DNA of 64,000 bases, from the NCBI RefSeq assembly GCF_950066645.1, contig NZ_CATMFB010000010.1:95139-159138 (forward strand), written 5' to 3'. Positions 10,352 to 60,410 of the stretch are shown in pieces. This DNA is from an uncultured Thalassolituus sp. (GTDB taxonomy: Bacteria; Pseudomonadota; Gammaproteobacteria; Pseudomonadales; Oceanobacteraceae). Numbering within the stretch: position 1 is the first letter of the stretch; each line of letters starts with the position of its first letter. The translations under genes and the position numbers were made by a program. Below the pieces are notes generated by a model, which was not told the origin of the DNA, did no database searches, and saw only the letters and a program-made list of their open reading frames with translations.

Positions 10352-10363
10352 GGGCACCGGCGC

Positions 10364-39969: not shown

Positions 39970-39994
39970 GTAACGGATGCAAACGGAGACAACT

Positions 39995-42504: not shown

Positions 42505-42520
42505 CAGACGCTTCTGTTGA

Positions 42521-42551
42521 AATAAAAAAGGGCTGAACGCCCTTTTTTATT
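42521..42551. terminator. Bidirectional intrinsic terminator between ntrC and the msh operon
   Basis: AATAAAAAAGGGC-TGAAC-GCCCTTTTTTATT. Confidence 0.85.
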
Positions 42552-42560
42552 GTCTGTATT

Positions 42561-45125
42561 TCAACGTATTTCCCGGGTAAATATTATCCGTTCATGACCT
42601 CGGGCAACGCCAAAAGCCGCTTCTGCCCCCGGGTCTTCTTCACTGCCATTACTGTCATAATCAAATTGCAGCCAGGCAGGGGCATCGTAATTAATTTTCG
42701 CAGTGCCCGTGAATTTATACCCGAGTACAGTCAGAGGGGACTGAAGAATCAAACCACTCCCTGAAGACGTGCCTGCCGACAACATGCCAGAGCTCGCAAG
42801 CAGATTCGTTATCCAGGTGGCCGGAGACACAGTAAAGGGGTCCACCGTTGCATCCGCACTGCTCCATGCCGTGCAATAATCATCATCATTTAAGATATAC
42901 CGGCCTCCCGAGAAGTACTCGGTACGCAATGGCACTACCATATCAATGGTGCTGCTACCGTGATTGTTTTCCAGCCACATCCGGCCGTAACGCATCTCGA
43001 AACCCGAGGCAGGATTAAATGTCTGCGAGGCCGATAATGTGACACCGTCGGAGTCTGTCACCGTAGCAAGGACATACGTCAGCGCCGGGCTGAAAGGCTC
43101 GACCTCAGAATCCGCCGTGCGGGCATACGTAATCTCATCCGACGGATCCATGATGTACTGCATCACTCCCGGCGCAGACACATTAAGTATTCCCACCGAA
43201 GCATCAACAGAGACCGGCATCGCTGCCCCCGCAGTATTCACCTTTGCATCATCTTCCGACGGTGACGTCACACTGACCCCGGCATTGGTCAGTTTCCGGT
43301 AGGCGTCCGCGGTATAGTTCAGCGTTGTGCTTCCGGCCAGGTTACGGGCGGTTATTTCAAATTCAGGCGCCACAAACCAATGCACCGGCTCGCCGATATA
43401 GGCATAGGCGTCACTGATGGCACAGGTAGGCGCCAATGTCCCCTGATCAACAACCGTCGCTGTAAAATGATCGGGGTAAAACCGTCCCCCCGGAGAGCTG
43501 CTGTATGTGCCCATAGCATACCCCCGGTACGCTGGTGTGGTGACATCGAAACGAAAGACCCCGACGTCGCTCTCCGTCACACTGACGGTATTCCGCCCTC
43601 CTGTGGACGACGGAGCATCCCAGGCCGGCGTATGATCGTAACTCACCGGAAACACGGTACCATCTGAATTCGCAGGCGCCGGGGACACCGCCACAGAAGA
43701 GAGGGTAAGACCGTTCTCCCGATAACTTGGCGTTCCACTGTTACCCGCACAGAAATCCGTGTCTGTATCTGATTCCCAGGCTACCGCCGTGACATCCAGT
43801 GTGAAGGGGGCACCAGCCTTCACAGCAGCCGGACAGGTTTCATCGGCATCCGTGCAGGCTACCGATGACGTGACACACAGTCCGGCGGGATAGGCAACGA
43901 AGTCGCCGCTGCCACTCATCACCAACCCGCTGTCGTTGTATACGGCACTGAGCCTGGTATTGCCGACGTCAGCGTAATTCAGTGCCAGGGTAGCAACACC
44001 ATCACCATCAAAATTCAGAGGCCTCGCCACCGCACCCGACACTGAATTGCCGATTGCACTGCCATCGACATCGACATTCCAGTTCACCACCCTGCCGCTG
44101 TCGTCTGGTGGCAGATAGTCACTCCAGAGCATCACCGAGCGGGTGACATTAGCGAAGGCTGGAACACATTTCTGCGTCGCGTCGTCTTTTTTTACCGCTT
44201 TGATCTGTGCGCTTGTTGCACGCCGGGCAGGAAAATCCGGGACCTCAACAACAAAGCCACTGTCGGCAAAAAACAGGGAGCAGGCCGCACTGGCTGCACC
44301 ACCATTGATGGCGCACTGAGTCGCCCCACCAATCGTCGCCGGGAGTGATGACGTCACCGACAGTGTCACCGGTTCAGGGGTGGTGTGACTCAGAGACAGG
44401 GAAGCCGTACCGCCATTAAACGATACCGTGCTGCCTCCCACCCAGCCACTGGGGCTCAACTGCACAGTCACTGGGTCTGTGTACAGAGACGAGCAGCTGG
44501 CATCAGCACAGGCCTGCAGGGTTACAGGTTGTGGCGAGCAGGTCAGTGCAGGAGACGCGTAGACAAACTGATAATGATCCGGCCCGGTAGGCACCAGATC
44601 GGCAGCGATATTAATATTACTGACGTACCAGTTATCCCCCAGAAGATCGAAAAGGCTATAACCGCCGCCAAGCATCACATACCGTATCTGAAAGCTGTCG
44701 TGATAGGCGTCGGTCGGTAGACTGGCACTGTAGGTAAACCAGTTGCCCAATGAAATCAGCCCCAGAAACCCGTTGTTAGCAACAAAGGTATTCAGTGTTT
44801 TCCAGCTGCCATCATCAGCACGGTAATCAACCCGAAGATTTTCGCCGGGATTCGGTGCCGAACCGATCAGCCCCAGAAGATTAAAGGGCACAGTGACATC
44901 AAACGACAGGTCGACTGAGTTGGCATTGGCAAAATCGTACTGCTGCGATTCAACTTCGACGTAGCCGTTATGAATACGCAGCTCGTTCAGGCCATTGATT
45001 TCGGCACGGGAAGGTACGGAGGCAATCCAGTCCACTCCCATAGTGGCTCCCTGCAGCAGATTCAGATTCTGCAGAAGCGCCTGCCCCGGCAGGCTGACGC
45101 TCAGAAGCACCACACACAGGGGCAT
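42561..45125 (-). CDS. mshQ: MshQ-like pilus adhesin 3 (single jelly-roll head with hydrophobic loops + DUF6701-type C-terminus)
   Basis: DHY..ALTC, AVKKDD..CVPAF, YGRMWLE, FGVARGHERIIFTRE; start uncertain (45125 or 45188). Confidence 0.8.
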   Translation of the reverse strand: MPLCVVLLSVSLPGQALLQNLNLLQGATMGVDWIASVPSRAEINGLNELRIHNGYVEVESQQYDFANANSVDLSFDVTVPFNLLGLIGSAPNPGENLRVDYRADDGSWKTLNTFVANNGFLGLISLGNWFTYSASLPTDAYHDSFQIRYVMLGGGYSLFDLLGDNWYVSNINIAADLVPTGPDHYQFVYASPALTCSPQPVTLQACADASCSSLYTDPVTVQLSPSGWVGGSTVSFNGGTASLSLSHTTPEPVTLSVTSSLPATIGGATQCAINGGAASAACSLFFADSGFVVEVPDFPARRATSAQIKAVKKDDATQKCVPAFANVTRSVMLWSDYLPPDDSGRVVNWNVDVDGSAIGNSVSGAVARPLNFDGDGVATLALNYADVGNTRLSAVYNDSGLVMSGSGDFVAYPAGLCVTSSVACTDADETCPAAVKAGAPFTLDVTAVAWESDTDTDFCAGNSGTPSYRENGLTLSSVAVSPAPANSDGTVFPVSYDHTPAWDAPSSTGGRNTVSVTESDVGVFRFDVTTPAYRGYAMGTYSSSPGGRFYPDHFTATVVDQGTLAPTCAISDAYAYIGEPVHWFVAPEFEITARNLAGSTTLNYTADAYRKLTNAGVSVTSPSEDDAKVNTAGAAMPVSVDASVGILNVSAPGVMQYIMDPSDEITYARTADSEVEPFSPALTYVLATVTDSDGVTLSASQTFNPASGFEMRYGRMWLENNHGSSTIDMVVPLRTEYFSGGRYILNDDDYCTAWSSADATVDPFTVSPATWITNLLASSGMLSAGTSSGSGLILQSPLTVLGYKFTGTAKINYDAPAWLQFDYDSNGSEEDPGAEAAFGVARGHERIIFTREIR

Positions 45126-45153
45126 TAATACCCCGAAAGAATATATCGGGGAT

Positions 45154-48100
45154 TTAGCGCAGTTCTCTCCGGTAGATGACTTTTTCATGCCCACGATATA
45201 CACCAAAGGTTGCCGTTCCCTGAGGGTTCTCAAAACTTCCATCATTATCGTAATCACCCGTCAGCCATGACGGTGCCGCATATTCAACGGTGGCTTCACC
45301 TGTGTCGGGCGTACCCGGCGCATTGACAGGAGCCTGCAACAGAATGCCGCCGCTACCACTCAATCCACTGCCCACTGTCCCAGAGGATGCCTGAATCGCT
45401 GTGAGCGTCGCAGGCGAGACTGAGGCATTCACGCTGTCCCAGGTCGTACAGGAGTCATCATCAGACACCAGATAGCGACCTCCATCGTAGTACTCAATCC
45501 GTAGCGGCATCACCAGATCACTGGTTTCCGGCCCGTAGGTGTCTTCAAGCCACATACGTCCGAATCTCAACCAGAGACTTGCCACCGGAGTGGCACTGTA
45601 GGGGCCACCCGTCAGCGCGGCATCAAGGTCACTGGCAGCAGTAAGCTGATAGGTAATATCCGGCTGAAAACTGGCTACTTCTGCCGTTGCTGAACGCGTG
45701 TAAGTCCAGTCGTCCAGAGCACTCATCGTATAGGTCACTACCCCACCAGGACCGGCTGGAACGCTGACAGTGCCCTCATTCACCGTCGTAACCACCGGCA
45801 GCGGTGTCGTGGCGTCAGTGGCTACTGCATTGTTGTCCTGCGTCGGGCCACTCACTGTAACGCCCGACGGCAATAACCTCATAAACCCACCTTGAGTGTA
45901 GTTCAGCGTGACGTCATTTGCCGCATTTTCAGCCCGAATGGAAAACTCAGGAGCAACCAGCCAACCCGAGCTCTGGCCGCTGTAAGTCAATGGGGTGCCC
46001 ACGGTGCAGGCACCCAACAGCTCGCCCGGCTCACTGACAGACGCCGTAAAGTGATGAGGATAAAAACGGCCAGTCGCCGGACTGCTGTATGTACCCATCG
46101 GATAGCCCCGGTAGGCAGGCGCAGTCACATCGAAGCGGAACACCCCGACCTCCGACTGACTGGCAGACACAGTGTTTGATCCACCTGTGCCGCTGCCAGC
46201 ATCGTACGATGCAGTATGAGCGTAGGAGGCCGGCGACACAGTGCCGTTGCTGTTTGCCGGAGAGGGCGCGAGCACGACAGATGACAACGCGAGAGTGTCG
46301 CGATAATTAGGTGTGCCGGCATTGCCTGAACACAGGTCTGTGTCGCCATCACTTTCCCACGCCACGGCAGTGACGGTCAGATCGAAACTGTCGCCAGCCG
46401 CGACAAACGCCGGGCAACTGCTGTTAGCTGCTGCGCAGGTTCCGGCACTGCTCACGCAGAGCCCTGCCGGATACACGACAAAATCATCATTGCCTGTCAT
46501 CACAAGTCCGGCGTCGACACCACTGCCATCGTAGCGGACGTTAAGCTGGGTATTCCCCACGTCCTGGTAGTTCACGGTGACGGTCGCCTGCCCCGTTGCA
46601 TCAAAATTCAGATTCTGCGTCGGCGCAGTTGCCAGACTGGAACCGATCGCGGCTCCGTTCACACTGACCGGCCAGTTAACGACTCTGCCGGTATTGTCAG
46701 GCGCCAGATAATCGGACCACAGACGCACAGGCTTAGTCACGCTGGCAAAGGCAGGCACGCACTGTTGAGTTGCATCATCTTTCCTGACCGCGCGGACCGT
46801 CGCTGATGTAGCGCGATTCGCCACAAAATCATTCACATCCACAGCAAAGCCGCTGTCGGCAAACGTAAGATCACAGAAGGTGCTCTCTGCACCCCCGTCG
46901 ATCACACAGGTGTTAGCAGCCCCCGAAATAGCGGGCGTCGCAGAAGATGCGCCTATAGTCACCGTACCCGGAGTGGTATGCGCCAGCGACACTGTAGTAC
47001 TGCCACCACTGAAATTAACGGTGTCACCGCCGACCCAGCCGGTCGGTGTCAGCGTCAGACTGACAGGGTCGGTATAGAGGGTTGAACAGGAAGCATCCTG
47101 ACAGGCCTCAATGGTCACCGAATGCGTATTACAGGTCAGCGCTGACGAGCCATAACTGAAGCGGTAATGATCGACACCGTCCGTACGCAGCGTCCGGGTA
47201 CCGATATAGACCTCGTCAATGTGGTACATATCGTAGCGGCGCAGTCCCGAAACCGTCCCATCCACCTGATAAAAACGTATTTTGAACGCACTGTGCAGGC
47301 CCTCAGGAGGGATACGAGCGCTGAAATTACGGACACGCCCGGCATCCCCGCCTTCAGCCTCGTAGAAAGCAATCGGGCGCCATGTGCCGTCTGACAGGTA
47401 CATCTCCGTATACAGATGGTCATTACCCGAGGGGTCTTCACTATCGTAATTTCCTACCGTCAGTGCATCGGTACCGCTCAGCGAGTCCAGGCCATTTCTG
47501 ATCCAGTAGGAAATTTCCGCATACTCTTCGCCACTGAGGTCAATATCACGCGTGGTGGTATAACGCACACCGCAACAGGTATAAAAACTCTTCGATCCCG
47601 CCGCTGACGTGTGATTACTGATTTCGGAGGTAAAGTTGCCGTCGATTCTCAGGAAGGTCCAGTCGAGCGTAGAGAGCAACAGATTGCGCTCGAAGCCATC
47701 GTAGAATATAGGCGTTTCATCGGCGGGAATAATATCGGCGATTTCGATATCGTCGATATGCCAGAAGTCGCGGTTATTGCCAGAACCATCAATCTGATAA
47801 AACCGGAAGCGGAAATTCGCATGTTTCGCATTGGCCGGCAGCGTCATAAAAAAGGGATAAATATCACCTTCTGATGCTCCTCCCCCTTCAAACGTTTCGA
47901 CCCTCTGCCAGGTTCCATTCGACAGATAGATTTCGAAATGCAGATCGTCTCCAGAAGACGTCCACTCACTGAAATCATCGGAGCCCTGGCGCAACCAGAA
48001 ACGCAGACGGGCTGTTCCCATGGCGGAAGTATCGATCACGGGTGAGGTGACAATAATCTCACCGCAGCACAGATAGAGGCTGTAAGAACCGGATATTTTC

Positions 48101-48282
48101 GCCTGAGTGCCAAAACCGGCCTGGCCATCATCAAGCACTGTGGCTGTGTAAGTATAGCTGTCTCCGCCAGGCTCGAAGTCATCAAAGAATACAATGGTCT
48201 GAGCAGCAAATACCGGGGAGGACAGCGCCAGCAGCAACCATAATGCTGACTGGATAAAACGTCTGGAGTAATCGCTCAGCAT
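45154..48282 (-). CDS. mshQ: MshQ-like pilus adhesin 2 (two tandem reelin-like jelly-roll repeats + DUF6701-type C-terminus)
   Basis: Signal peptide; repeats aa ~30-182 and ~192-361; AVRKDD, FGRMWLE, FGVYRGHEKVIYRRE. Confidence 0.82.
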   Translation of the reverse strand: MLSDYSRRFIQSALWLLLALSSPVFAAQTIVFFDDFEPGGDSYTYTATVLDDGQAGFGTQAKISGSYSLYLCCGEIIVTSPVIDTSAMGTARLRFWLRQGSDDFSEWTSSGDDLHFEIYLSNGTWQRVETFEGGGASEGDIYPFFMTLPANAKHANFRFRFYQIDGSGNNRDFWHIDDIEIADIIPADETPIFYDGFERNLLLSTLDWTFLRIDGNFTSEISNHTSAAGSKSFYTCCGVRYTTTRDIDLSGEEYAEISYWIRNGLDSLSGTDALTVGNYDSEDPSGNDHLYTEMYLSDGTWRPIAFYEAEGGDAGRVRNFSARIPPEGLHSAFKIRFYQVDGTVSGLRRYDMYHIDEVYIGTRTLRTDGVDHYRFSYGSSALTCNTHSVTIEACQDASCSTLYTDPVSLTLTPTGWVGGDTVNFSGGSTTVSLAHTTPGTVTIGASSATPAISGAANTCVIDGGAESTFCDLTFADSGFAVDVNDFVANRATSATVRAVRKDDATQQCVPAFASVTKPVRLWSDYLAPDNTGRVVNWPVSVNGAAIGSSLATAPTQNLNFDATGQATVTVNYQDVGNTQLNVRYDGSGVDAGLVMTGNDDFVVYPAGLCVSSAGTCAAANSSCPAFVAAGDSFDLTVTAVAWESDGDTDLCSGNAGTPNYRDTLALSSVVLAPSPANSNGTVSPASYAHTASYDAGSGTGGSNTVSASQSEVGVFRFDVTAPAYRGYPMGTYSSPATGRFYPHHFTASVSEPGELLGACTVGTPLTYSGQSSGWLVAPEFSIRAENAANDVTLNYTQGGFMRLLPSGVTVSGPTQDNNAVATDATTPLPVVTTVNEGTVSVPAGPGGVVTYTMSALDDWTYTRSATAEVASFQPDITYQLTAASDLDAALTGGPYSATPVASLWLRFGRMWLEDTYGPETSDLVMPLRIEYYDGGRYLVSDDDSCTTWDSVNASVSPATLTAIQASSGTVGSGLSGSGGILLQAPVNAPGTPDTGEATVEYAAPSWLTGDYDNDGSFENPQGTATFGVYRGHEKVIYRRELR

Positions 48283-48291
48283 AGATACCTC

Positions 48292-50409
48292 TCAGTATCG
48301 TTCACGCCACAGAATAATCCTCTCGTGGCCACGGTACACGCCAAAACGGGCTGTGCCTTCAGGGTCTTCGTCGGTACCGTCATTGTCATAATCACCTTCC
48401 AGCCAGGACGGCGCATCAAAGGTGACACCAACCGATCCCGTATCCGGTGTGCCCGGTACCAGGACCGGCGCACGTAATAAAATTCCACCCTGACTTCGCC
48501 CCGCAGAAAGAATCCCGGCGCTGGTCATAGTGTCTGTCAGTCCGGAGGCAGACAGCGTTGCTGCCGCTGCGTCCCAACTGGTGCCAGTATCGTCTTCATT
48601 CAGACGATAGCGGCTACCGTCAAAATATTCTGTCCTCAGGGGAACAGCCAGATTCTGTGTTTCCGGTCCGTAAGTATCTTCTATCCATAAACGGCCATAT
48701 TTAATGGAGAGTGGCGCACCAGGTGTCAGGATAACCGGAGAATCGAGACCAACGCTGTCACTGTCTGTAACATCAGTTAACCGGAAACTCAGAGCAGGAC
48801 CGAAGGGAGCCACTTCTGCCACCTGACTGCGCTGGTAGCGCATCGCATCCAGAGGGCTCATGACATAACTGAAGGTACCATTATCCGACACACTGAGCGC
48901 GCCTTGTTGAAGGTCCGCACCGAATGCCAGCGCATTGCTGTCTGTACCCGTCGCAACCGAGTCAGCAAGCGGGGCTGCCACGGTAATGCCCGTATCCGCA
49001 AGACGCTGAAATCCGGTCTGCGTATAGTTTTCGGTGATGCCTCCGGCAGCGTTTCGAGCCGTGATTTCAAACTCCGGCGCCACCAGCCAGTCCATATCCT
49101 GACCGCTGTATGTGAAGGCACCCGCTGTGTTACAAAAAGGCCTGATTTCGCCCATTTCAAGGGCCGTTCCAGAGAAGTGATCCGGAATAAACCGACCGGC
49201 CGGCACCGCAGAGTAGGTTCCCAGCGGATAGCCAAAGTAGTCAGGCGCTGTGACATCGAATCTGAACACCCCGACTTCGCTTTCCGTCATCGATACCTGA
49301 CGCGTCCCTCCGGCAACAGGATTGTGGTCGTAGGAAACCGGGCTGATTACCCCCGGGTGATTGGCCGGTGACGGCGACAGTACGGTCGCAGACAGCCCGA
49401 GGCCGGTAGCGCTGTAGCTCGCAAGGGCACTGTTACCGCTACAGAAATCGCTGTCGCCATCCCCGCCCCAGCCGACAGCAGTCACTGAGAGGTTGAATGG
49501 CTGTCCGGCTACCGCTGCCGCCGGACAGCTTGCATCAGCGTCTGTGCAGGCGAATCCGGTCGCGACACACAACCCCTGCGGCCGCGCGATAAAGTCATCA
49601 CTGCCCGTCATCAGCAGTCCGGCATCGACCCCAGTGCCGCTGTATAGCAGGTTCAGGCGAAGCTGCCCGGCATCGGCATAATTGAGCGTCACCTGTGTTT
49701 CGCCCTGCGCATCGAACGGGAGACTCACAGGCACCGCCGTGCCCGCCGATATACCCACAGGCGTCGAATTAACCTCTGCCGCCAGACTTGCAACGCGCCC
49801 CGCCGGGCCAGGATCGAGGTAGTCTGTCCATAGAGACAGCGCACGGGTAACTGAAGAAAACGCCGGCACACACTGCTGCGTGACATCGTCTTTACGCACT
49901 GCCGCAATTGTTACTGTCGTGCCACGACCCGCAATAAACGAGATACTGTTGACGTAACTCGTGGCGTTGTCAGAATAAAAATGAAAATAGAAATTCCGCG
50001 TAAAATTGAGAGGATTAACAAAGTTAATATGAAAATCTTCCATAATATCCCGCGCCCGAGTGAGATTGGTGCTGTTACCAATCACATAGCCTGACTCTGT
50101 GACTTCACGCCAGAGGTTATCGCTCGACTGCTTATTATTGCCGTCACCGACCAGTAGCCAGGGGTGCATGGAGCGCCACTCCTGATGTGGACGGACATCA
50201 TATCCCTGATATGGGAAAAACTGCTCAGGGTACTTTTTATAGACCGCAGTATTCAGAGGCGCGTCCTCACGCCAACGTGTTGCCTGAGTCCACTCGTAGG
50301 TGGCCGCAATGACGGGCGCGGCGATTAATACCAACAGACATAACACCAGGTAGAAGCTACCCAGAAATACGACTTTACACCCAAAACCCAACGCCGCCAG
50401 TCTACTCAT
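48292..50409 (-). CDS. mshQ: MshQ-like pilus adhesin 1 (short aromatic-rich head + DUF6701-type C-terminus)
   Basis: Follows mshP with a 1-nt overlap; AVRKDD..CVPAF, YGRLWIE, FGVYRGHERII. Confidence 0.82.
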   Translation of the reverse strand: MSRLAALGFGCKVVFLGSFYLVLCLLVLIAAPVIAATYEWTQATRWREDAPLNTAVYKKYPEQFFPYQGYDVRPHQEWRSMHPWLLVGDGNNKQSSDNLWREVTESGYVIGNSTNLTRARDIMEDFHINFVNPLNFTRNFYFHFYSDNATSYVNSISFIAGRGTTVTIAAVRKDDVTQQCVPAFSSVTRALSLWTDYLDPGPAGRVASLAAEVNSTPVGISAGTAVPVSLPFDAQGETQVTLNYADAGQLRLNLLYSGTGVDAGLLMTGSDDFIARPQGLCVATGFACTDADASCPAAAVAGQPFNLSVTAVGWGGDGDSDFCSGNSALASYSATGLGLSATVLSPSPANHPGVISPVSYDHNPVAGGTRQVSMTESEVGVFRFDVTAPDYFGYPLGTYSAVPAGRFIPDHFSGTALEMGEIRPFCNTAGAFTYSGQDMDWLVAPEFEITARNAAGGITENYTQTGFQRLADTGITVAAPLADSVATGTDSNALAFGADLQQGALSVSDNGTFSYVMSPLDAMRYQRSQVAEVAPFGPALSFRLTDVTDSDSVGLDSPVILTPGAPLSIKYGRLWIEDTYGPETQNLAVPLRTEYFDGSRYRLNEDDTGTSWDAAAATLSASGLTDTMTSAGILSAGRSQGGILLRAPVLVPGTPDTGSVGVTFDAPSWLEGDYDNDGTDEDPEGTARFGVYRGHERIILWRERY

Positions 50410-50807
50410 TATTTAGCCCGGACCTCCAGTATCCGTTGCGCCGCATCCTCACCGCTGCCGCAGGTGCCCGTTGATGTCAGAGTAAAATAATCCACCGTAT
50501 CAACGGTGACCGATTCACAGGTCACTGAGGTACTGCAGCCACGCAGGCCATCAACATTAAAGGCGGCAGAAAAGAAAGGTGCCGTGGCACAGGCCCGTCC
50601 CGGCGACCCGTCCGGAGGCAAAAGAAGATTCAGCGCAGCTTCGGTGCCGCTCTCTGCGGCATAAAATGCGCGGTGTGCCTGTACCTGCAGACTGACCGAC
50701 GCGGAAGAATCGGTCTGCACTGACGACATCGAGGCAATAATAATGGCGAGCACAGTGACAACAAACAATGCCATTGGCAGGCCGAAACCCTGCTGCTTAC
50801 GGTACAT
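50409..50807 (-). CDS. mshP: MSHA biogenesis protein MshP (PilX-like minor pilin)
   Basis: QQGFGLPMALF, RAFYAAESG, C-terminal RILEV. Confidence 0.85.
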   Translation of the reverse strand: MYRKQQGFGLPMALFVVTVLAIIIASMSSVQTDSSASVSLQVQAHRAFYAAESGTEAALNLLLPPDGSPGRACATAPFFSAAFNVDGLRGCSTSVTCESVTVDTVDYFTLTSTGTCGSGEDAAQRILEVRAK

Positions 50808-51591
50808 TGTGAATCCTCACTTGTTGCGCAAGTTCCAGTGATTCTCCGGTCGAAGGATGCACCAGTGCGTACTGAAAGGTAACCAGACCATTGCGTTGTA
50901 ACGTCGGTGGCAGATAGCGGAAATTCAGTGATGCGGTTTCAAGCGGATACGCGAGAACCGTCCGGCCACCAGCACGATTAGAAGGCAGGCCGGCCTTCAG
51001 ATTACTGACATCACTGATAAAGCCATAGCCGCGGTAGCGGTAGAGAAAATCACCATCCTGACAGATGGCTTCGGGTGCCAGCGAGACATAAAAACGTCGT
51101 TCCGGGGAGTCCGTCGGAAACGTATGACTACTCCCCAGGGTGACCGTTATTTCCGCCGTTGAAGCTGGAACACTGCCGGTGTCAGGAGTGAGAGGACCCG
51201 GATCATTCTGAGTATAGATATTGGCGGCCGTCATAGGGTAAACAGAAATATACCCGCTGACGGCGGTAGCCGTTGAGTAAGGTACCGCAAGAAACTGTGT
51301 TACCGCGCTGCCGACCTCCAGGTCGGTATAGGTTGACGCTGCGACCACCGGCATATACTCAATACACTGGCCATCAGAGGTGGTGCGGATACTTCCGGGC
51401 AACGCGTCGCGGATCGCGCGGCTGACCTGCTCGTTAACAACATACCCCGCACCAGCCAGCTGCTGACGACCCGCCGTATCTATCATGCCCTGGCTCGTAG
51501 ACTGAATAAACTGCACTGAAATCATCGCCACAATACCTGCAACCGCGATCGTCAGTACCAGTTCAACCAGAGTAAAGCCACGGGCCCGCAT
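50797..51591 (-). CDS. mshO: MSHA minor pilin MshO
   Basis: RGFTLVELV; EQVSRAIRDALPGSIR; QVRIHNVP. Confidence 0.88.
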   Translation of the reverse strand: MRARGFTLVELVLTIAVAGIVAMISVQFIQSTSQGMIDTAGRQQLAGAGYVVNEQVSRAIRDALPGSIRTTSDGQCIEYMPVVAASTYTDLEVGSAVTQFLAVPYSTATAVSGYISVYPMTAANIYTQNDPGPLTPDTGSVPASTAEITVTLGSSHTFPTDSPERRFYVSLAPEAICQDGDFLYRYRGYGFISDVSNLKAGLPSNRAGGRTVLAYPLETASLNFRYLPPTLQRNGLVTFQYALVHPSTGESLELAQQVRIHNVP

Positions 51592-52079
51592 CAGTAATTC
51601 CCCTTATACACGGAGAAAATACTGTTCTGCCCCCGGGGGTCAACAATATTCACCTGTACCAGCTTGGCGCCCTCAGTATTTACACCAATCGAGTCGTCGC
51701 AGGTGACCGTCACACTGACGGAAAAACCAGCGTAATCCGCTGCCAGTGACGAATCGATCAGCGCCGGGGACTCACTGTCGATTTCATCGAAATCATCGAC
51801 ATCGTCATAATCGTCCCGGTCTTCACCATCGTCTGTTATCCGACAGGCTCCGGTATATGCAGGCACCCCATACGGCCCGGTTGCTTCATCAAAACGATGA
51901 GACAGGATTTCATCAAAATAGAGTTGGGCAAGATCAAGCGCCCGACTCTGAACCATCGCATCGGAAGAGCGACCACTCAGCACCTGAAACGCCTGTAGCG
52001 ATGCCACAAGGGCGACAGAAATAATGACAATGGTTAACACCATTTCAACAAGAGACAGACCCCGCGTATGTCGGATCAT
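51591..52079 (-). CDS. mshD: MSHA minor pilin MshD
   Basis: RGLSLVEMV; RALDLAQLYFDEILSHRFDE; YKGNY. Confidence 0.88.
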   Translation of the reverse strand: MIRHTRGLSLVEMVLTIVIISVALVASLQAFQVLSGRSSDAMVQSRALDLAQLYFDEILSHRFDEATGPYGVPAYTGACRITDDGEDRDDYDDVDDFDEIDSESPALIDSSLAADYAGFSVSVTVTCDDSIGVNTEGAKLVQVNIVDPRGQNSIFSVYKGNY

Positions 52080-52091
52080 GCTTCGCTCCCT

Positions 52092-52565: not shown

Positions 52566-52569
52566 GTAA

Positions 52570-53054: not shown

Positions 53055-53558
53055 TTATCGGATGTTCCAGCTTACACGGCCATTTGCCGCATCATATTCA
53101 ATGTAATATCTGTTGCCGCTCAACTGGTGGTAATAACGGCAGCGTCCTTCAACTTCCTCGACCCGGAAATCAGCACTCAGGCTGTCGCCGGAAGTCAGTG
53201 TCGGAACTTCGATGTCCAGCAGGCTTGTCCATAATCCCGTACAGCGCTCTGCACCTGTCACCTCAGAAGACGCATCCACATCTTCTTTCCTGCCCAGCGG
53301 CCAGCCACTTTCTGTCATTTTCATGGCAATCAGTAACTGACTGTTCCGGTCCGTCAGCCACACTTTGTGAAATGTATGAGCACTCACTTGTATGGCACTG
53401 CCGACGGCCTTCACATGGGCGCGGTACGCTTCATCAATCAGGTCGTCTAACCTCGGCACCAGGAACAGCATTCCCAGTGCCATGACTGCTAAGGCAACCG
53501 CGCTCTGCAGCAGGCTGAATCCTCTGAACCTTTCAGCGGACAGCAACAGCATTGGCAT
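53055..53558 (-). CDS. mshB: MSHA pilin-like protein MshB/MshF
   Basis: RGFSLLQ (Gln at +5); GWP...C..LW..LL; CRYY. Confidence 0.65.
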   Translation of the reverse strand: MPMLLLSAERFRGFSLLQSAVALAVMALGMLFLVPRLDDLIDEAYRAHVKAVGSAIQVSAHTFHKVWLTDRNSQLLIAMKMTESGWPLGRKEDVDASSEVTGAERCTGLWTSLLDIEVPTLTSGDSLSADFRVEEVEGRCRYYHQLSGNRYYIEYDAANGRVSWNIR

Positions 53559-53653
53559 AATTAAACCTTAGTAGAGGCCGGATGCTTCGCAGGTCTTTTT
53601 TACGAAATAAAACATAATTCATATACATTCCCTGTCTTGAAAACCGACGAAAA

Positions 53654-54871
53654 TTACTTGCCTGTTACAGCACCGCTGAGTTCCCACACAGGCAGGAACA
53701 CACCAAGCGCCAGTAACAGCACCAGAGCACCTAAAAACACCAGCAGAATCGGCTCAATGGCGTCTGCGAGTTGTTTCAGCTCGTAATCGATTTCCTGTTC
53801 GTAAAAATCTGCAACTTCATCCAGAAGTTTGTCGATTGAGCCAGTTTCTTCACCAACGGCCATCATCTGTAGAACCAGTGGTGTAAACAGGCCAGTCTGC
53901 ATCGCCGTATTTGTTAACCGCTCACCGCGCTGTACCCCATCACCCATCGAAGTAATGGCCTTACCGATAAATAAATTACCGACACTGCCCGCTACAATAG
54001 TCAGGGTATTCAGGATTGGCACACCAGCGGTGAGCATCATAGAAAATGACCGCGAGAAACGGGCCAGGGCAATTCGTTCAAAAATACTTCCGATCAGTGG
54101 CAGTCTGAGCTTCGCTCTGTCCCACCATAGCCCACCGGCGTCGGTTGAAATGTATTGTCGGAAACCAACAAACCCCACAATCGTGCCGACCAGCAGCAGG
54201 TGCCACCAGTTCTGCATAAACTCAGATGTCGCGATAAGAATTAATGTCGCGAAAGGCAAGTCGGCCCCCAATTTACTGAACACCGCTGAAAAGCTTGGAA
54301 TCACAAACATGGTGATGACCACCATGGCCACGACTATGGCCGAGACCACCATAATCGGATACCGCAATGCGGATTTAATCCGTTTTTTGGTCTCCCTCTC
54401 CATTTCAAGGTGACCCACAAGGCGTATCAACGCATGATCGAGATTACCTGTGCTCTCACCGATGTGGATCATGCTGATATAAATCGGCGAAAACAGCTTA
54501 GGATGACGACGGAAGCCCGAAGCCAGGTCGGAGCCCGACACCAACACCTGACTGATATCATCCAGTACTACTTTCAGCGCCTCATTGCTGGCAGATTCCG
54601 CCAACCCAGACAGCGCCCGGATAATAGGCACCCCGGCTTTAGTTAACGCATAAAGCTGACGGGTGAAGAGAATCAGTTCTTCTGCGCTGATTTTCGCAGA
54701 ACGCAGTGACACAGGTTTTGAGGCCTGAGCTGTTGCCTGCTCTGCAATTTTCAGAGGGGTAACCCCCTTCTGCATCAGCTGCGCGATGGCCATATCCCTG
54801 TTGCCGGCCTGCAGATTCCCTTCGACCGCATTGCCGCTCTGATCGCGGCCCCGGTAAAGGAAAGTCGCCAT
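53654..54871 (-). CDS. mshG: MSHA inner-membrane platform protein (GspF/PilC family)
   Basis: FTRQL..L.KAGVPI, GESTGNLD, MM.VGEETG. Confidence 0.93.
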   Translation of the reverse strand: MATFLYRGRDQSGNAVEGNLQAGNRDMAIAQLMQKGVTPLKIAEQATAQASKPVSLRSAKISAEELILFTRQLYALTKAGVPIIRALSGLAESASNEALKVVLDDISQVLVSGSDLASGFRRHPKLFSPIYISMIHIGESTGNLDHALIRLVGHLEMERETKKRIKSALRYPIMVVSAIVVAMVVITMFVIPSFSAVFSKLGADLPFATLILIATSEFMQNWWHLLLVGTIVGFVGFRQYISTDAGGLWWDRAKLRLPLIGSIFERIALARFSRSFSMMLTAGVPILNTLTIVAGSVGNLFIGKAITSMGDGVQRGERLTNTAMQTGLFTPLVLQMMAVGEETGSIDKLLDEVADFYEQEIDYELKQLADAIEPILLVFLGALVLLLALGVFLPVWELSGAVTGK

Positions 54872-56586
54872 CAGATATCCTCACCGTCGAGAGTGGCAGA
54901 TACCCTGAATACTTCGTCGAGAGACGTCACCCCTTGTCGGGCAAGATCCAGCGCTGACAACGCCAGCGGCCGGAAGTATTCGGAACGCATGGCCGCTTCA
55001 CTGAACGCCTGCTGATCGCCGCGACGCAACGCAGCGACCATGTCACTGTTTACCTCCAGCAATTCGTAGATACCGACGCGCCCCTGATAGCCCGTATTAT
55101 GACAGTGATGACATCCACGACCATGCAGGTAAGGTGCTGAAGCGGACTCCGGTTCCATAGATTCCAGCCAGGCTTTTTCCTGAGCATCCGGCTGATACGG
55201 CTGAGTACAGTGATGACACAGTTTCTTAATCAGTCGTTGTGCCATTACAGCCCGCAGCGACGACGCCACCAGGTAAGAATCAACGCCCATGTCCATCAGA
55301 CGCGCTGGTGCAGATACCGCATCGTTGGTGTGCAGTGTTGACAGCACCATGTGACCAGTCATCGCTGCACGAAGACCAATTTCAGCGGTTTCGTGATCAC
55401 GCATCTCACCAATCAGTACGATATCAGGGTCCTGACGCAGCGCCGCACGCAGCACAGTAGAGAATTCCAGCCCGATCTTTGTATTTACCTGTACCTGATT
55501 AATGCGCGGCAGACGGTATTCAATCGGATCTTCGGCAGTAATGATTTTCTGCTCAGCCTGATTAAGCTGAGTCAGTGCCGCATAAAGCGTAGTTGTTTTA
55601 CCCGACCCTGTCGGGCCCGTCACCAGAATCAGACCATGCGGCCGTGATATCAGATATTCGAAACGCTTCTGAATTTTTTCGCCCATACCCAGCGACGCCA
55701 TACTGAGAATGCCGCCGCTCTGATCCAGCAGACGCATCACCACTGACTCACCAAACTGAACAGGCATGGTCGAGAGACGGACGTCGATATTTTTATTGCG
55801 TACGCGAATATTGAAACGTCCATCCTGAGGAAGACGTTTTTCAGAAATATCCAGCCCCGACATAATTTTGAGCCTGGAAACGAGCGCTGAAGCCACTCGT
55901 TTTTCTTTCATCACCTGTTCCTGCAGCTCACCATCGACCCGCAGCCGGATACGCAGCTGGCTCTCTTCAGGCTCAATATGTACATCCGATGCCTTGACCT
56001 GCACGGCGTCCTCAAACAGATTCTGCAGCAGACGTACCACAGGCGCTTCGGAGGTATCAGAAGAAGAAACGATGGCATTGATATCAAAATCACTGCTCTG
56101 CAGCTCACCGGCTAACTCACCGGCGATCGTTGCCATCTGTTCCTGACGACGGTACACATTATCAAGAATTGAAAGAAGTTCGGTCTCCTGCACGAAGGCG
56201 GGCATGACCGGCTTTTTCAGAATCCGCTGCAGATCATCGATAATCATCAGATCTGTCGGATCTGCCATACCGACCAGTATTCCCTGAGGGTCTTCTGACA
56301 GCAGCAGACAACGGTAGCGGCGCGCCTGAGTTTCAGGCAGACGCTGAATCAAAGCGTTATCGAGGCGGAAACGCGACAGATCAATATACGGATAACCAAA
56401 ATAATCCGACAGGATCTGTAACAGTTTTACCTCAGTAACAAAACCGAGGTCGGTAATGGCTTTACCGAGTTTTTTTCCGGTACGTTTCTGTTCTGCCAGG
56501 GCCATCATCAGCTGTTCCTGATTAATCAGCTGACGCTCTAACAGCAGATCCCCGACACGGACTTTTTTACTGACTCTGGTTTCCAT
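54871..56586 (-). CDS. mshE: MSHA extension ATPase with MshEN domain
   Basis: RVGDLLL N-terminus; GPTGSGKTTT; EDPIEY; RQDPD..LIGEMRD; STLHTND. Confidence 0.95.
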   Translation of the reverse strand: METRVSKKVRVGDLLLERQLINQEQLMMALAEQKRTGKKLGKAITDLGFVTEVKLLQILSDYFGYPYIDLSRFRLDNALIQRLPETQARRYRCLLLSEDPQGILVGMADPTDLMIIDDLQRILKKPVMPAFVQETELLSILDNVYRRQEQMATIAGELAGELQSSDFDINAIVSSSDTSEAPVVRLLQNLFEDAVQVKASDVHIEPEESQLRIRLRVDGELQEQVMKEKRVASALVSRLKIMSGLDISEKRLPQDGRFNIRVRNKNIDVRLSTMPVQFGESVVMRLLDQSGGILSMASLGMGEKIQKRFEYLISRPHGLILVTGPTGSGKTTTLYAALTQLNQAEQKIITAEDPIEYRLPRINQVQVNTKIGLEFSTVLRAALRQDPDIVLIGEMRDHETAEIGLRAAMTGHMVLSTLHTNDAVSAPARLMDMGVDSYLVASSLRAVMAQRLIKKLCHHCTQPYQPDAQEKAWLESMEPESASAPYLHGRGCHHCHNTGYQGRVGIYELLEVNSDMVAALRRGDQQAFSEAAMRSEYFRPLALSALDLARQGVTSLDEVFRVSATLDGEDI

Positions 56587-56589
56587 AAC

Positions 56590-57591
56590 TTAACGTAATA
56601 CTCCCTGCTGATATGACACCCAGCGACGCTGATCAGTCGTCAGTTCGTATTCTGCTACCAGGTGTCGCAGATTGCGTTTCGCGGCTTCAATCTGGCCTGC
56701 GTCTATCTGCGCCTGCGTCTGAGCAATCGCCCATTCGGCACGTTTTGGCTGGATCGTCATCAATACGCCGTACTGCTGTACCGCAGCGCTGTAAATCCCG
56801 AACATATGCAGGCCCGGTGCCACCACGCTGAGCCAGTTAATATCGCGTTCAGCGGAGTGCGCATCAAACAGTGCAAGAAAGTCGTCGCGCATTCCCTGTT
56901 CCAGATAAATCCGCTCTTTCAGAGTGATAAATTCCATACGTGGCTCGGCACTGATCGCATCATCAAGCGCAACAATCGCGGCCTGCCAGTCGCCACTGCG
57001 ATAGCGGTGAATCGCCTTGCCATAGTGGTCATCCGGAGACAGACGGCGTACGACAGACACCTCAGAGCTCTGCACTGGCGTGACTGCCTTGCGCGTCGCT
57101 GGCGCTTTTACTGCGACAGAGGCACGGTCCTGAACGACAGGCGCTATTGCCTCTGCAACGGGGACCGACACCTGATCGCTGCCTGATGCCAATGGCGCCT
57201 GAGCGACCGCCTGAGCAACCACTTCCGCATCCGATTTATGCACGCTGGCGGCCACCTGATGACTTTCGAGGTCGGCCAGTTCGCTGGTAAGCACGACGGC
57301 CGGGGCTTTATTTTCTGGTATCACTGTCACCGTCTCTGGCACCAGCTGAGTGACTGGAGGAGCAGGTGCTACCGGAAGCTCCGGCAGAACGCTTGTATCA
57401 ATGATCGCCGGCGTCGCCTTAAGGTAATCACTGAAATAAACCACCATGCCCGCACTGAGAAGTGATACCAACACTGCTGGCCAGATAACCAGACGATGAT
57501 TGCCCGCGTCGTTGGCATACCCCTCAACGTCGCTGCCCTGCACATCCCGGCGTTCGTCGAGATCCTGTAATACCTGATGAATTAGACTCAC
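56590..57591 (-). CDS. mshN: MSHA biogenesis protein MshN (TPR)
   Basis: MSLIHQVLQDLDERR, TM, Pro/Ala linker, C-terminal TPR-like helices. Confidence 0.8.
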   Translation of the reverse strand: MSLIHQVLQDLDERRDVQGSDVEGYANDAGNHRLVIWPAVLVSLLSAGMVVYFSDYLKATPAIIDTSVLPELPVAPAPPVTQLVPETVTVIPENKAPAVVLTSELADLESHQVAASVHKSDAEVVAQAVAQAPLASGSDQVSVPVAEAIAPVVQDRASVAVKAPATRKAVTPVQSSEVSVVRRLSPDDHYGKAIHRYRSGDWQAAIVALDDAISAEPRMEFITLKERIYLEQGMRDDFLALFDAHSAERDINWLSVVAPGLHMFGIYSAAVQQYGVLMTIQPKRAEWAIAQTQAQIDAGQIEAAKRNLRHLVAEYELTTDQRRWVSYQQGVLR

Positions 57592-57601
57592 GCTCTACTC
57601 C

Positions 57602-58483
57602 TTAAAAGCCGATGGCAACCCGGACCCGTTCGCGCCAACCGAGCACCGGTTTTACACTCTCGGTATCTGCAGCAGCGGCTTCGACGTGTTTTTCTGTGAT
57701 TGTGTTGTGTCCCTTGCCGAATGCCACCAGCAAGGCTTTATTAGCCAACACATTAATAAGACGCGGTGTGCCTTCACTGCTTAACCAGATAAGCCTGACA
57801 GCCGCACGTGTGAACAAAGGGGTTCCCTGATAACCTGCGCAGGAAAGACGATGATTCAGGTAGGTTCCGATCAACTCCGGAGCGCTGAGTGGCACGAGAG
57901 ACGCAGAGGTAGTAATCCGCTGCTTAAGCTGACGGAACGCCTGCTTATTCAGAATCACATCCAGTTCAGGCTGACCAAAAAGGACGATCTGAATCAACTT
58001 GCGACGTTCGGTCTCAAGGTTAGAAATCAGGCGTATCGCCTCAAGGGTTTCCGCCGGAAGTGTCTGCGCTTCATCGATCACCAGAACCAGGGGTTTACCG
58101 CTTCGGGCAATCTCAATTAACTGCTTTTCTACCGCATGGCGCAGTTCGCTCAGACGCTTATACCCGGACAGACCAATCTCAGCCCCCAGGGCCACCCAAA
58201 GGCCAGCGGGCGAGAGCGTCGGATTAGGAATATAGGCAGTTTCCGACTGATGAGAAGCAAGATAATTCAGCAGGCGACGACAAAGCAGTGTCTTTCCAGT
58301 GCCGACTTCGCCCGTCACTTTCACGAAGCCTTCCCCTGAAGACAGTGCAAAAAGGACAGACTCGAACGCCGCATCATGATGCGGCAGTTCGCAGTAGTAC
58401 CCGGTATCGGGTGTCAGTGAGAAGGGTGACTCTACAAGACCATAATGTGCTTCACAGGCCTGTTTAACTTCAGCAACGTCCAT
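57602..58483 (-). CDS. mshM: MSHA ExeA-family AAA ATPase
   Basis: PFSLTPDT, GEVGTGKTLLCR, IDEAQ, LFGQPEL, G.PRLIN. Confidence 0.92.
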   Translation of the reverse strand: MDVAEVKQACEAHYGLVESPFSLTPDTGYYCELPHHDAAFESVLFALSSGEGFVKVTGEVGTGKTLLCRRLLNYLASHQSETAYIPNPTLSPAGLWVALGAEIGLSGYKRLSELRHAVEKQLIEIARSGKPLVLVIDEAQTLPAETLEAIRLISNLETERRKLIQIVLFGQPELDVILNKQAFRQLKQRITTSASLVPLSAPELIGTYLNHRLSCAGYQGTPLFTRAAVRLIWLSSEGTPRLINVLANKALLVAFGKGHNTITEKHVEAAAADTESVKPVLGWRERVRVAIGF

Positions 58484-58486
58484 GGC

Positions 58487-60070: not shown

Positions 60071-60080
60071 AATCTGCTTC

Positions 60081-60410
60081 CTACTTCTTCTCAGAATGTT
60101 TAGTTCTTTTAATTAAAGACAGGGGTTGGTGTTTTTTCCTGATTTTCACGACAACCTGATCAGGAGTAATGCGCACAACGCGTGCGCCACTCACCGTATC
60201 CCCTTCCCGGACCAGAGTGCCGTTGATCACCGCACTCCGTTTTTCACCAGCCACCAGAATCTGCTGAAGCTCCAGTGATCGCTTCACGGCTGCCCTGGGC
60301 TTCACCTCGACCGGCGCGAACTGCGGCGGCCGCGTCGGATCACCGACGGCAAACAGAGTCGCAGGAAGAAACAACACAGCGGCCACCAGGCCTGTCAGAA
60401 TTTTATTCAC
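60081..60410 (-). CDS. mshK: MSHA biogenesis protein MshK
   Basis: DPTRPP, LQQI, AVING..V.EGD. Confidence 0.88.
   Translation of the reverse strand: MNKILTGLVAAVLFLPATLFAVGDPTRPPQFAPVEVKPRAAVKRSLELQQILVAGEKRSAVINGTLVREGDTVSGARVVRITPDQVVVKIRKKHQPLSLIKRTKHSEKK

Follow-up and report, generated by a model that had tools for sequence, protein, structure and literature searches.

Three tandem MshQ genes behind one minor-pilin set: candidate alternative tips for an MSHA-type pilus

Why should an operon for one MSHA-type pilus end in three mshQ genes, when Vibrio cholerae has a single mshQ of ~1200 aa (PMC13533445)? The question is raised by a 64-kb stretch of DNA, here called the window, in which three adjacent DUF6701/MshQ genes (Q1, Q2 and Q3) occupy positions 42561-50409 of the minus strand, directly after mshP, and encode proteins of only 705-1042 aa. 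That three large genes follow mshP had been predicted from the letters of the DNA, and the ORFs, the PF20419 matches and the operon order all confirm it. Like the three proteins here, V. cholerae MshQ, encoded by the last gene of mshBACDOPQ, matches PF20419 over the whole core, and its gene likewise lies directly after mshP. The operon ahead of the Q genes is complete, with a secretin, an MshE-type ATPase, a platform protein, five prepilin-like genes and, at the end, mshP, and within the 64-kb window a single minor-pilin set stands upstream of Q1-Q3. The role of MshP is assigned by analogy with the V. cholerae system (PMC13533445), and the MshO/PilW-like and MshD/PilV-like names are given from position and size only. 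The locus comprises the following features:

53055..62670, minus: remaining msh operon, with MshF-like ORF, platform MshG, ATPase MshE, MshN, MshM, secretin MshL and MshK/J/I (ORFs; Pfam families on the identical public contig L001)
52092..53037, minus: two pilin genes, 157 aa and 155 aa, the probable major pilin among them (prepilin motif)
50797..52079, minus: two more minor pilins, 264 aa (MshO/PilW-like) and 162 aa (MshD/PilV-like) (N-terminal methylation motif)
50409..50807, minus: MshP-like minor pilin, 132 aa, presumed docking partner (PilX_N/GspK-like N-terminus)
48292..50409, minus: Q1, MshQ paralogue 1, 705 aa (ORF; PF20419 match)
45154..48282, minus: Q2, MshQ paralogue 2, 1042 aa (ORF; PF20419 match)
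42561..45125, minus: Q3, MshQ paralogue 3, 854 aa from the ATG at 45125 (ORF; PF20419 match)
42521..42551, bidirectional: intrinsic terminator hairpin at the operon end, 13-bp stem with T runs on both sides, 10 nt past the Q3 stop

Each of the three genes is a complete ORF with a Sec signal peptide and a ribosome-binding site, and each product matches PF20419 (DUF6701) nearly end to end, with E-values of 4e-125, 1.5e-139 and 1.6e-129 and scores of 419.5, 467.3 and 434.1 bits for Q1, Q2 and Q3 against a gathering cut-off of 27; the profile positions matched, out of 577, are 24-577, 5-576 and 2-577, respectively. At the junctions, the Q1 start codon and the mshP stop codon share 1 nt (TAATG), Q2 follows Q1 after 9 nt with GAGAGG ahead of its ATG, and 28 nt lie between Q2 and Q3. 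The start codon of Q3 is uncertain, with in-frame upstream starts running into Q2: a mechanical ORF list places it at a GTG at 45257, a 104 nt overlap with Q2, and the gene callers on public contigs use the ATG at 45125, which yields 854 aa. Candidate terminators within the Q array were no more frequent than expected by chance. A sigma54 promoter upstream of the pilin genes was considered and rejected, since matches to its pattern are no commoner than chance.

Contigs of two marine metatranscriptomes, a kind of data set that can contain DNA, cover all of Q1, Q2 and Q3, and 100%-identical metatranscriptome contigs span the mshP/Q1, Q1/Q2 and Q2/Q3 junctions; their depth varies along the locus and is highest over the pilin genes, contig depth being a poor measure of expression. 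Expression of only one paralogue would have spoken against a choice of tips, and at the RNA level, to which this result extends, all three are transcribed. Co-transcription from one operon and the tight junctions would equally suit a joint hetero-oligomeric tip in which Q1, Q2 and Q3 assemble together and all are needed. Relatives with one or two MshQs, in varied head combinations and orders, are hard to reconcile with such a fixed trio, however, and a common docking-type tail on all three points to proteins that compete for a single site, not to interfaces that complement one another; a joint complex is therefore quite improbable.

That tail belongs to the part of the proteins that the paralogues have in common. 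The four motifs quoted in the original prediction, AV(R/K)KDD.TQ.CVPAF, (Y/F)GR(M/L)W(L/I)E...PLR.EY, DYD(N/S)(D/N)G and FGV.RGHE.(I/V)I, are all present in 3/3 proteins, and the shared region divides as follows:

48295..49953, minus: Q1 DUF6701 core, predicted all-β chain of Ig-like domains, the putative stalk (AlphaFold, Foldseek)
48376..48393, minus: Q1 DYDNDG loop, aa 673-678, a DxDxDG calcium-type motif (sequence motif)
48295..48345, minus: Q1 C-terminal tail FGVYRGHERIILWRERY, aa 689-705, candidate docking plug (family tail alignment, AlphaFold)
45157..46908, minus: Q2 DUF6701 core, with DYDNDG at 45238-45255 and tail FGVYRGHEKVIYRRELR at 45157-45207
42564..44324, minus: Q3 DUF6701 core, with DYDSNG at 42645-42662 and tail FGVARGHERIIFTREIR at 42564-42614

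In an AlphaFold monomer the Q1 core (residues 155-690) is modelled with pLDDT mostly >85, and its Foldseek matches are RTX-adhesin repeats, invasin, S-layer, cadherin and complement MG domains; as modelled, the DUF6701 core resembles the stalk of an adhesin. Ahead of the tail, and 10 residues away from it, stands a DxDxDG-type motif (DYDNDG or DYDSNG) in which D673, Y674, D675 and G678 (Q1 numbering) are invariant in the three paralogues; the loop is kept in most close relatives and, judged by its motif, may bind calcium. No part of the MshQ family sampled is better conserved than the last 17 residues, and among Q1, Q2 and Q3 the tails are 65-71% identical by hand count, as against 49-54% for the cores. 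The tail motif FG.(Y/F)RG..R.I..RE.. occurs in all three and is discernible in 35/35 tails listed (most weakly in P0039 and P0043), with the chain always ending 1-3 residues beyond RE..; across 30 homologues of 25-45% overall identity, F689, G690, G694 and E703 never vary, and the conservation of I699 is 90% or more. The tail is likewise shared with the wider DUF6701 family sampled, in an alignment that left out V. cholerae MshQ itself. In the Q1 monomer model it is detached and of low confidence, the last two 10-residue blocks having mean pLDDT values of 59 and 48. A conserved tail that is unstructured in the monomer fits the strand-addition idea published for V. cholerae, an AlphaFold prediction in which the MshQ C-terminus adds a β-strand to MshP, mshDOPQ being syntenic with pilVWXY1 (PMC13533445).

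Ahead of the core, the features are different in each protein:

49954..50304, minus: Q1 head, ~aa 36-152, part 1 of a rare 'type A' unit (sequence comparison)
47179..48204, minus: Q2 head 'BB', two tandem jelly-roll β-sandwiches, aa 27-186 and 187-368 (sequence, AlphaFold, Foldseek)
46909..47178, minus: Q2 pre-core Ig-like module, aa 369-458, modelled as a β-sandwich
44586..45077, minus: Q3 head 'C', single β-sandwich, aa 17-180, distant relative of the Q2 sandwiches
44325..44585, minus: Q3 pre-core Ig-like module, aa 181-267 (sequence comparison)

The description of the N-termini as unrelated or only distantly related proves accurate: the two Q2 sandwiches are 34% identical to one another (E = 7e-27), the Q3 head is 25% identical to Q2 domain 1 (E = 1e-8), and the Q1 head has no similarity to the head of either. 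Given that the Q2 and Q3 heads are related, there are, on sequence comparison, only two unrelated types of head in the array, together with a duplication, and not three. The Q2 head has weak Pfam Reelin_subrepeat-B matches and an AlphaFold model of moderate confidence (pLDDT 70), whose Foldseek matches include reelin repeats, tandem CBM22 (4xup), meprin MAM, CBM51 and the Eph ligand-binding domain; this double CBM/MAM-like head is probably glycan-binding, although fold likeness alone names no ligand. The Q3 head, which has no Pfam match of its own, is orthologous to heads in two homologues (P0008 and P0012). Without a Pfam match too, the Q1 head matches just 19 representatives among 1.84 billion proteins; its AlphaFold pLDDT is ~30, homologues in the alignment being too few. 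The three long representatives scanned (P0035, P0039 and P0043) have this head at the N-terminus of a DUF6701 protein, and in the alignment of other proteins the full type A unit is ~290 aa. Type A units were also found in stand-alone ~300 aa proteins with PEP-CTERM-like tails. A sequence search against solved structures gave no match for Q1 or Q2.

Between head and core, Q2 and Q3 carry an Ig-like module (DH(Y/F)..ALTC...C.DA.C...) that is 58% identical between the two and is present in 33/35 homologues, Q1 being the sole full-length member without it; L057, added later, is also without it. Part 2 of the type A unit and the first ~20 DUF6701 profile positions are likewise missing from Q1, which is thus, by its sequence, an atypical shortened MshQ, with its family assignment unaffected. 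With half a unit for a head, and neither the Ig module nor the start of the profile, Q1 may therefore not be an adhesin at all.

Given three tails with the same motif and one MshP in the locus, one of the three proteins would be expected per pilus, and we lean, with modest confidence, to the reading that the three genes of this operon supply one MSHA-type pilus with alternative MshQ tips. Each MshQ, built as a variable N-terminal head, an Ig-like stalk, the DxDxDG loop and the conserved 17-residue tail, would be exported via its Sec signal peptide, and by analogy with PilC/PilY1 the tail would complete the β-sheet of the last minor pilin, MshP. This contact might stabilise the MshD/O/P priming complex, the MshQ staying on the tip of the pilus that it had primed, and with one of three MshQs per pilus the pili of a cell would form a mixed population that displays different heads: the double CBM/MAM-like head of Q2, the single related sandwich of Q3, or the short rare module of Q1. 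That MshQ sits at the tip, one molecule to each, that the three compete for MshP and that their ligands differ is what we infer here. The original prediction, that one minor-pilin platform loads any of three tips, is partly supported, by the shared tail, the single minor-pilin set in the window, transcription and purifying selection; it needs amending in that the heads are not three unrelated ones, Q1 is shortened, and multiple MshQ genes are not a one-off.

Published work on MshQ and PilC bears on this scheme at several points. Deletion of mshQ reduces surface piliation in V. cholerae (PMC7096442), a swap of mshQ between V. fischeri strains alters squid colonisation (PMC4094467), and tip localisation and pilus biogenesis both require the PilC plug, which also suffices for them (10.64898/2026.09.18.752573). 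Yet MshQ is termed a 'putative adhesin' (PMC7096442) and its placement at the tip is predicted only, in V. cholerae by AlphaFold; Sec signal peptides, Ig-like adhesin-type folds in all three proteins and the stand-alone occurrence of type A units with PEP-CTERM-like tails would also suit surface or secreted adhesins or matrix proteins that are no part of the tip and are merely co-regulated with, or exported by, the MSHA machinery. Such a role appears improbable, as the MshQ gene lies directly downstream of a PilK/GspK-like minor pilin in every locus examined (L009, L010, L011 and L014 among them), the extreme C-terminus is the most conserved part, as in PilC/PilY1, and loss of mshQ alters piliation itself (PMC7096442).

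The state of Q1 invites a different division of tasks, in which one paralogue primes assembly via its plug and the others adhere, or else the three are largely redundant. Head-reduced and leading the array, with its translation coupled to that of mshP, whose stop its start overlaps, Q1 would be the best candidate for priming: it is without head part 2, the Ig module and the core start, yet conserved and under purifying selection. A 12-residue plug alone restores piliation in Neisseria (10.64898/2026.09.18.752573), and piliation falls in V. cholerae when mshQ is deleted (PMC7096442). Against this, all four of the listed strain variants in the Q1 head region are synonymous, which suggests that the half-module is conserved and more than a spacer, and relatives with two MshQs are usually without the shortened form, so that priming needs none. 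A division of labour is an unlikely alternative to three alternative tips.

Each of Q1, Q2 and Q3 is under purifying selection, strain differences being synonymous:nonsynonymous 29:11, 35:5 and 27:8, respectively, where the expected synonymous fraction is 0.26. Between the paralogues, pS is 0.77-0.80, that is, saturated, in keeping with the claim that synonymous sites had diverged; dN is ~0.5, and the longest exact nucleotide matches are 12-14 nt. With synonymous sites saturated and no exact match >14 nt, the genes are old paralogues, not cassettes. The companion claim, that no recombinase or reverse transcriptase lies nearby, was borne out in the 10 largest ORFs between 26.7 and 42.5 kb; further, the interval 42000-51000 has neither near-identical repeats nor good inverted ones, and no rearranged joints were seen in four metagenomes. 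Tandem surface-protein paralogues look at first sight like a variation system, whether one expressed gene with silent cassettes (pilS-like antigenic or phase variation) or a diversity-generating or invertible switch. Such a system is very improbable indeed for three complete ORFs with signal peptides and ribosome-binding sites, all transcribed and all under purifying selection, whose longest exact match of 14 nt is too short for homologous exchange and which are without repeats, neighbouring recombinase or reverse transcriptase, or rearranged metagenome joints. The sole apparent frameshift, a split of Q2 into 161 + 897 aa on public contig L002, is a scaffold N-gap with foreign filler and no frameshift tract, and phase variation was rejected on that ground. 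Gene conversion or cassette exchange was likewise rejected on the saturated synonymous sites, exact matches of at most 14 nt and lack of repeats, and a diversity-generating or invertible switch on the lack of a reverse transcriptase or recombinase neighbour and of metagenome joints.

The idea of alternative tips is itself already known from other type IV pili. Neisseria likewise has paralogous tip adhesins, PilC1 and PilC2, which share one minor-pilin set and whose genes are unlinked and phase-variable; the Q1-Q3 genes, unlike pilC1 and pilC2, are tandem and co-transcribed and give no sign of phase variation. As is proposed here for Q1-Q3, PilC docks by a short C-terminal plug on a PilK-type minor pilin, its last 12 residues being crystallographically shown as the plug on PilK (10.64898/2026.09.18.752573). 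The C-terminal domain of PilC is a β-propeller, whereas MshQ is a chain of Ig-like domains; Q1-Q3 have no Pfam match to the PilC/PilY1 β-propeller, and the top 50 Foldseek matches of the modelled core include no PilY1 or PilC structure. They do not belong to the PilY1/PilC family, though they may function as PilY1 does. Myxococcus xanthus, similarly, has three tip proteins (PilY1.1, PilY1.2 and PilY1.3) with a conserved C-terminal part and differing N-terminal parts, differences that have been read as functional specialisation (PMC13190605, PMC9109919), but there each PilY1, of the propeller family and not DUF6701, has its own minor-pilin gene cluster, whereas here the three Q genes follow a single cluster. 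The Myxococcus Kil (Tad) pilus is one fibre that can be fitted with different tip modules, whose variable domains are exposed (PMC12075869); in that Tad pilus a tip consists of an entire minor-pilin complex, while the variable part here is a large non-pilin protein on a constant MSHA-type minor-pilin set. A literature search for tandem mshQ found no array described; its one result was a gene called 'mshQ2' in a transcriptome paper on Vibrio fischeri. With the role of MshQ still only predicted, the locus is a natural test of the C-terminal plug model outside PilC/PilY1, offering three different cargoes on one docking tail. If the head ligands differ, it would explain a wider surface range per pilus in particle- or biofilm-associated marine bacteria without duplication of the machine.

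Among relatives, searched in metagenomes with a query alignment of 13 sequences, genomes carry one, two or three MshQs drawn from the same three head classes (A, BB and C) in varying order. The statement that MSHA operons normally end in one mshQ is right for the more distant msh loci sampled, which have one each, and wrong for this clade, in which two is the commonest number; multiple MshQ genes per operon are the rule here. The head classes of Q1-Q3 were not seen in the distant single-copy relatives sampled, from which Q1 differs also in being without the Ig module. It is a tentative and rather doubtful extension of the alternative-tip reading that these marine Gammaproteobacteria form a clade with combinatorial tips, in which heads A, BB and C have repeatedly moved onto lineage-specific MshQ stalks and any MshQ could plug into the single MshD/O/P platform via the universal tail, for a programmable mixture of pili that differ in surface specificity, with Q1 as a minimal tip. 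Head classes shuffled on lineage-specific stalks would suggest, in turn, that MshQ might be engineered to carry chosen binding domains on pilus tips. In a tree of the MshQ cores, the window trio cluster together at a bootstrap of just 56%, the clade uniting all type A cores has a bootstrap of 0%, and the cores group by lineage, not by head class, with two lineages at 96.5% and 90%.

The original prediction of three MshQ-like genes at 42561-50409 is borne out, the start of Q3 being uncertain, and every motif quoted for them is found in Q1, Q2 and Q3 alike. These genes, numbered in their order after mshP, end a complete MSHA-type type IV pilus operon, as delimited from open reading frames and Pfam matches:

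42561-62670, minus strand: complete MSHA-type type IV pilus operon
48292-50409, minus strand: Q1, 705 aa
45154-48282, minus strand: Q2, 1042 aa
42561-45125, minus strand: Q3, 854 aa; start codon uncertain
42521-42551, both strands: strong bidirectional terminator hairpin closing the operon

Ahead of the Q genes the operon holds MshI/J/K-like genes, a secretin, MshM, MshN, an MshE-type ATPase, a platform protein, an MshF-like ORF and five prepilin-like genes, the fifth and final of which is MshP, a 132-aa PilX_N/GspK-like minor pilin; individual minor-pilin names are assigned here from order and size only. Just these five lie between the MshF-like ORF and Q1 (50409-53037); V. cholerae has six prepilin genes (mshB, A, C, D, O and P). 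Spacing between the genes is tight: mshP overlaps Q1 by a single nucleotide at TAATG, a 9-nt gap separates Q1 from Q2, whose ATG is preceded by GAGAGG, and 28 nt separate Q2 from Q3. Candidate terminators and promoters within the array are in no excess over shuffled sequence. Further, 100%-identical contigs cover all three Q genes in two marine metatranscriptomes, some metatranscriptome contigs span the mshP/Q1, Q1/Q2 and Q2/Q3 junctions, and the depth is uneven with a peak over the pilin genes, as expected of RNA and not of contaminating DNA. One base is missing within the Q2 head (window 47474) in a metatranscriptome contig of run X7; as the loss is known from this one contig, either a misassembly or a frameshifted variant could account for it.

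Q1, Q2 and Q3 are members of the MshQ/DUF6701 family, Q1 being an atypical one. Each matches Pfam DUF6701 (PF20419; E = 1e-125 to 1e-139), the Q1 match beginning about 20 positions late, and the cores, predicted to be Ig-like chains forming the stalk, are 49-54% identical in pairs. Upstream of its core Q2 carries two tandem β-sandwiches (34% identical to one another) followed by a roughly 90-aa Ig-like module; in Q3 a single sandwich, distantly related to the Q2 pair (25% identity, E = 1e-8), precedes an Ig module 58% identical to that of Q2; Q1, without an Ig module, has a head of about 115 aa unrelated to the other two. Only 19 of 1.84 billion representative proteins matched the Q1 head in an exhaustive HMMER search, and in each of three long matches scanned the head stands at the N-terminus of a DUF6701 protein, there as a two-part unit of about 290 aa (type A). 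Given that Q1 retains only part one, it is a shortened form. The main rival reading builds on this head-reduced Q1, making it mainly an assembly primer within a division of labour or a redundancy among the three, and is rather unlikely. The full type A unit is carried as well by stand-alone proteins of some 300 aa with PEP-CTERM-like tails (P0037 and P0044; Q1 counterpart 49954-50304), and is thus a mobile extracellular module not confined to MshQ.

In its AlphaFold model the Q1 core is an all-β chain (pLDDT mostly >85 over residues 155-690), which Foldseek matches to Ig-like chains of adhesins and surface layers (RTX adhesin 6xi1, invasin 1cwv, SbsC, cadherin, complement MG domains); no PilY1-type propeller is among these matches. 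Because the propeller is absent, the Q proteins fall outside the PilY1/PilC family, and they probably work like its members. The Q2 head is modelled as two jelly-rolls (mean pLDDT 70), predicted to be of a carbohydrate- or ligand-binding class, the best Foldseek matches being reelin repeats, tandem CBM22, meprin MAM domains, CBM51 and the Eph ligand-binding domain.

The family's most widely conserved feature is the tail, the last 17 residues (Q1, FGVYRGHERIILWRERY; Q2, FGVYRGHEKVIYRRELR; Q3, FGVARGHERIIFTREIR), within which fall 4 of the 23 columns that are invariant when 30 sequences at 25-45% identity are aligned. In every homologue RE.. is followed by 1-3 further residues, where the protein stops. 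The tail is detached and of low confidence in the monomer AlphaFold model, and 10 residues ahead of it comes a loop of DxDxDG type, reading DYDNDG or DYDSNG. For V. cholerae, AlphaFold models predict that MshP receives a β-strand from the C-terminus of MshQ, and synteny links mshDOPQ to pilVWXY1 (PMC13533445). In Neisseria, tip localisation and pilus biogenesis both require the C-terminal plug of PilC, and the plug suffices for them (10.64898/2026.09.18.752573). Surface piliation falls when mshQ is lost (PMC7096442), and exchanging the gene among V. fischeri strains changes how the host is colonised (PMC4094467). In light of the published work on MshQ and PilC tails and on piliation, the best-supported reading, and on balance a probable one, is that Q1, Q2 and Q3 are alternative tip proteins that would compete by their common tail for a single MshP. 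The pili would then form a mixture in which different heads are displayed. That the Q proteins act away from the pilus tip is improbable.

Syntenic loci, which share a flank of σ54 response regulator, PAS kinase, DUF4124 protein and Dtd/SirB, hold one MshQ (L010, L011), two (L009) or, in the window's own lineage, three. A metagenome scan added 46 further loci. In the close clade (core identity at least 44%), with heads classified by the window's own modules (A, Q1 type; B, Q2 type, BB when doubled; C, Q3 type), the arrays are C-BB, BB-C, AA-BB, BB-AA, B-BB-A, A-BB-C and single C, A-BB-C being seen only in the window lineage. With near-duplicates removed, roughly one close-clade lineage has one gene, six have two and two have three; the search patterns bias this sample, which should not be read as a census. 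Each of the nine lineages further off (31-36% identity, plus L011 and L051) has just one MshQ, a long one with a head of another kind. Relatives with one or two MshQ in varied combinations are hard to reconcile with an obligate three-part complex of Q1, Q2 and Q3, which is very unlikely.

In a neighbour-joining tree the cores group by lineage and not by head class: the AA protein of L014 joins its BB and C neighbours at 96.5% bootstrap, the genes of L012 and L019 group at 90% and the window trio at 56%, and a clade of all type A cores receives 0%. Consequently, either heads moved between stalks or stalks were homogenised within lineages. Among close relatives L010 alone has just one MshQ (10001-12562); its one-sandwich head sits on a core that shares 74-78% identity with the cores of the BB-type proteins in L009 and L014 (bootstrap 100), so the head was remodelled while the stalk stayed conserved, within a short evolutionary distance. 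In L021 (11791-14869) and L023 (10709-13597) a BB-type MshQ comes in two pieces (896 aa + 147 aa) or ends at profile position 505/570, through either gene decay or assembly error. Small ORFs without a Pfam match lie inside or just ahead of MshQ arrays (152 aa, L012 6043-6501; 126 aa, L009 9575-9955).

The three genes are old paralogues without recent gene conversion, their synonymous sites being saturated (pS 0.77-0.80) and their longest exact nucleotide match 14 nt; no near-identical or good inverted repeats were found in the Q region. A strain about 98% identical, from biofilm and estuary metagenomes, has the same three Q genes, with no deletion joints in them. Cassette-type variation is contradicted by the data and barely credible. 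The best-supported differences from that strain, synonymous to nonsynonymous, are 29:11 in Q1, 35:5 in Q2 and 27:8 in Q3, against an expected synonymous fraction of 0.26 (p <1e-9 for each); each gene is thus under purifying selection. An apparently split Q2 in L002, a public scaffold from the same organism, was rejected as an artefact, an N-gap with foreign filler (L002 4430-4500) making gene callers cut the gene.

Neisseria PilC1 and PilC2 are tip adhesins with a common docking part and differing outer parts. Myxococcus has three PilY1 proteins, each with its own minor-pilin cluster (PMC13190605), and the Kil Tad pilus has interchangeable tips (PMC12075869). All these systems have multiple tip adhesins with common docking and differing outer parts, as proposed here; unlike the Myxococcus proteins, the Q array sits behind one minor-pilin set. 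What is new is the setting and layout, a tandem co-transcribed array behind one minor-pilin set in an MSHA-type pilus, together with the clade-wide mix-and-match of three head classes; no description of a tandem MshQ array or of head-class mixing was found in the literature searched.

The terminator hairpin at 42521-42551 reaches about 10x the depth of its flanks in metagenome X8, with a smaller excess in X5; given that in both it is joined to unrelated flanks, this hairpin sequence is present at other places too in those communities or genomes. A search for σ54 promoter patterns gave matches no commoner than chance. A PAS histidine kinase and a σ54-dependent response regulator (39977-42504, plus strand) converge on the Q3 end, and since this pair adjoins the msh operon in synteny in L009, L010, L011 and L001 (an identical public contig), it is a candidate pilus regulator.
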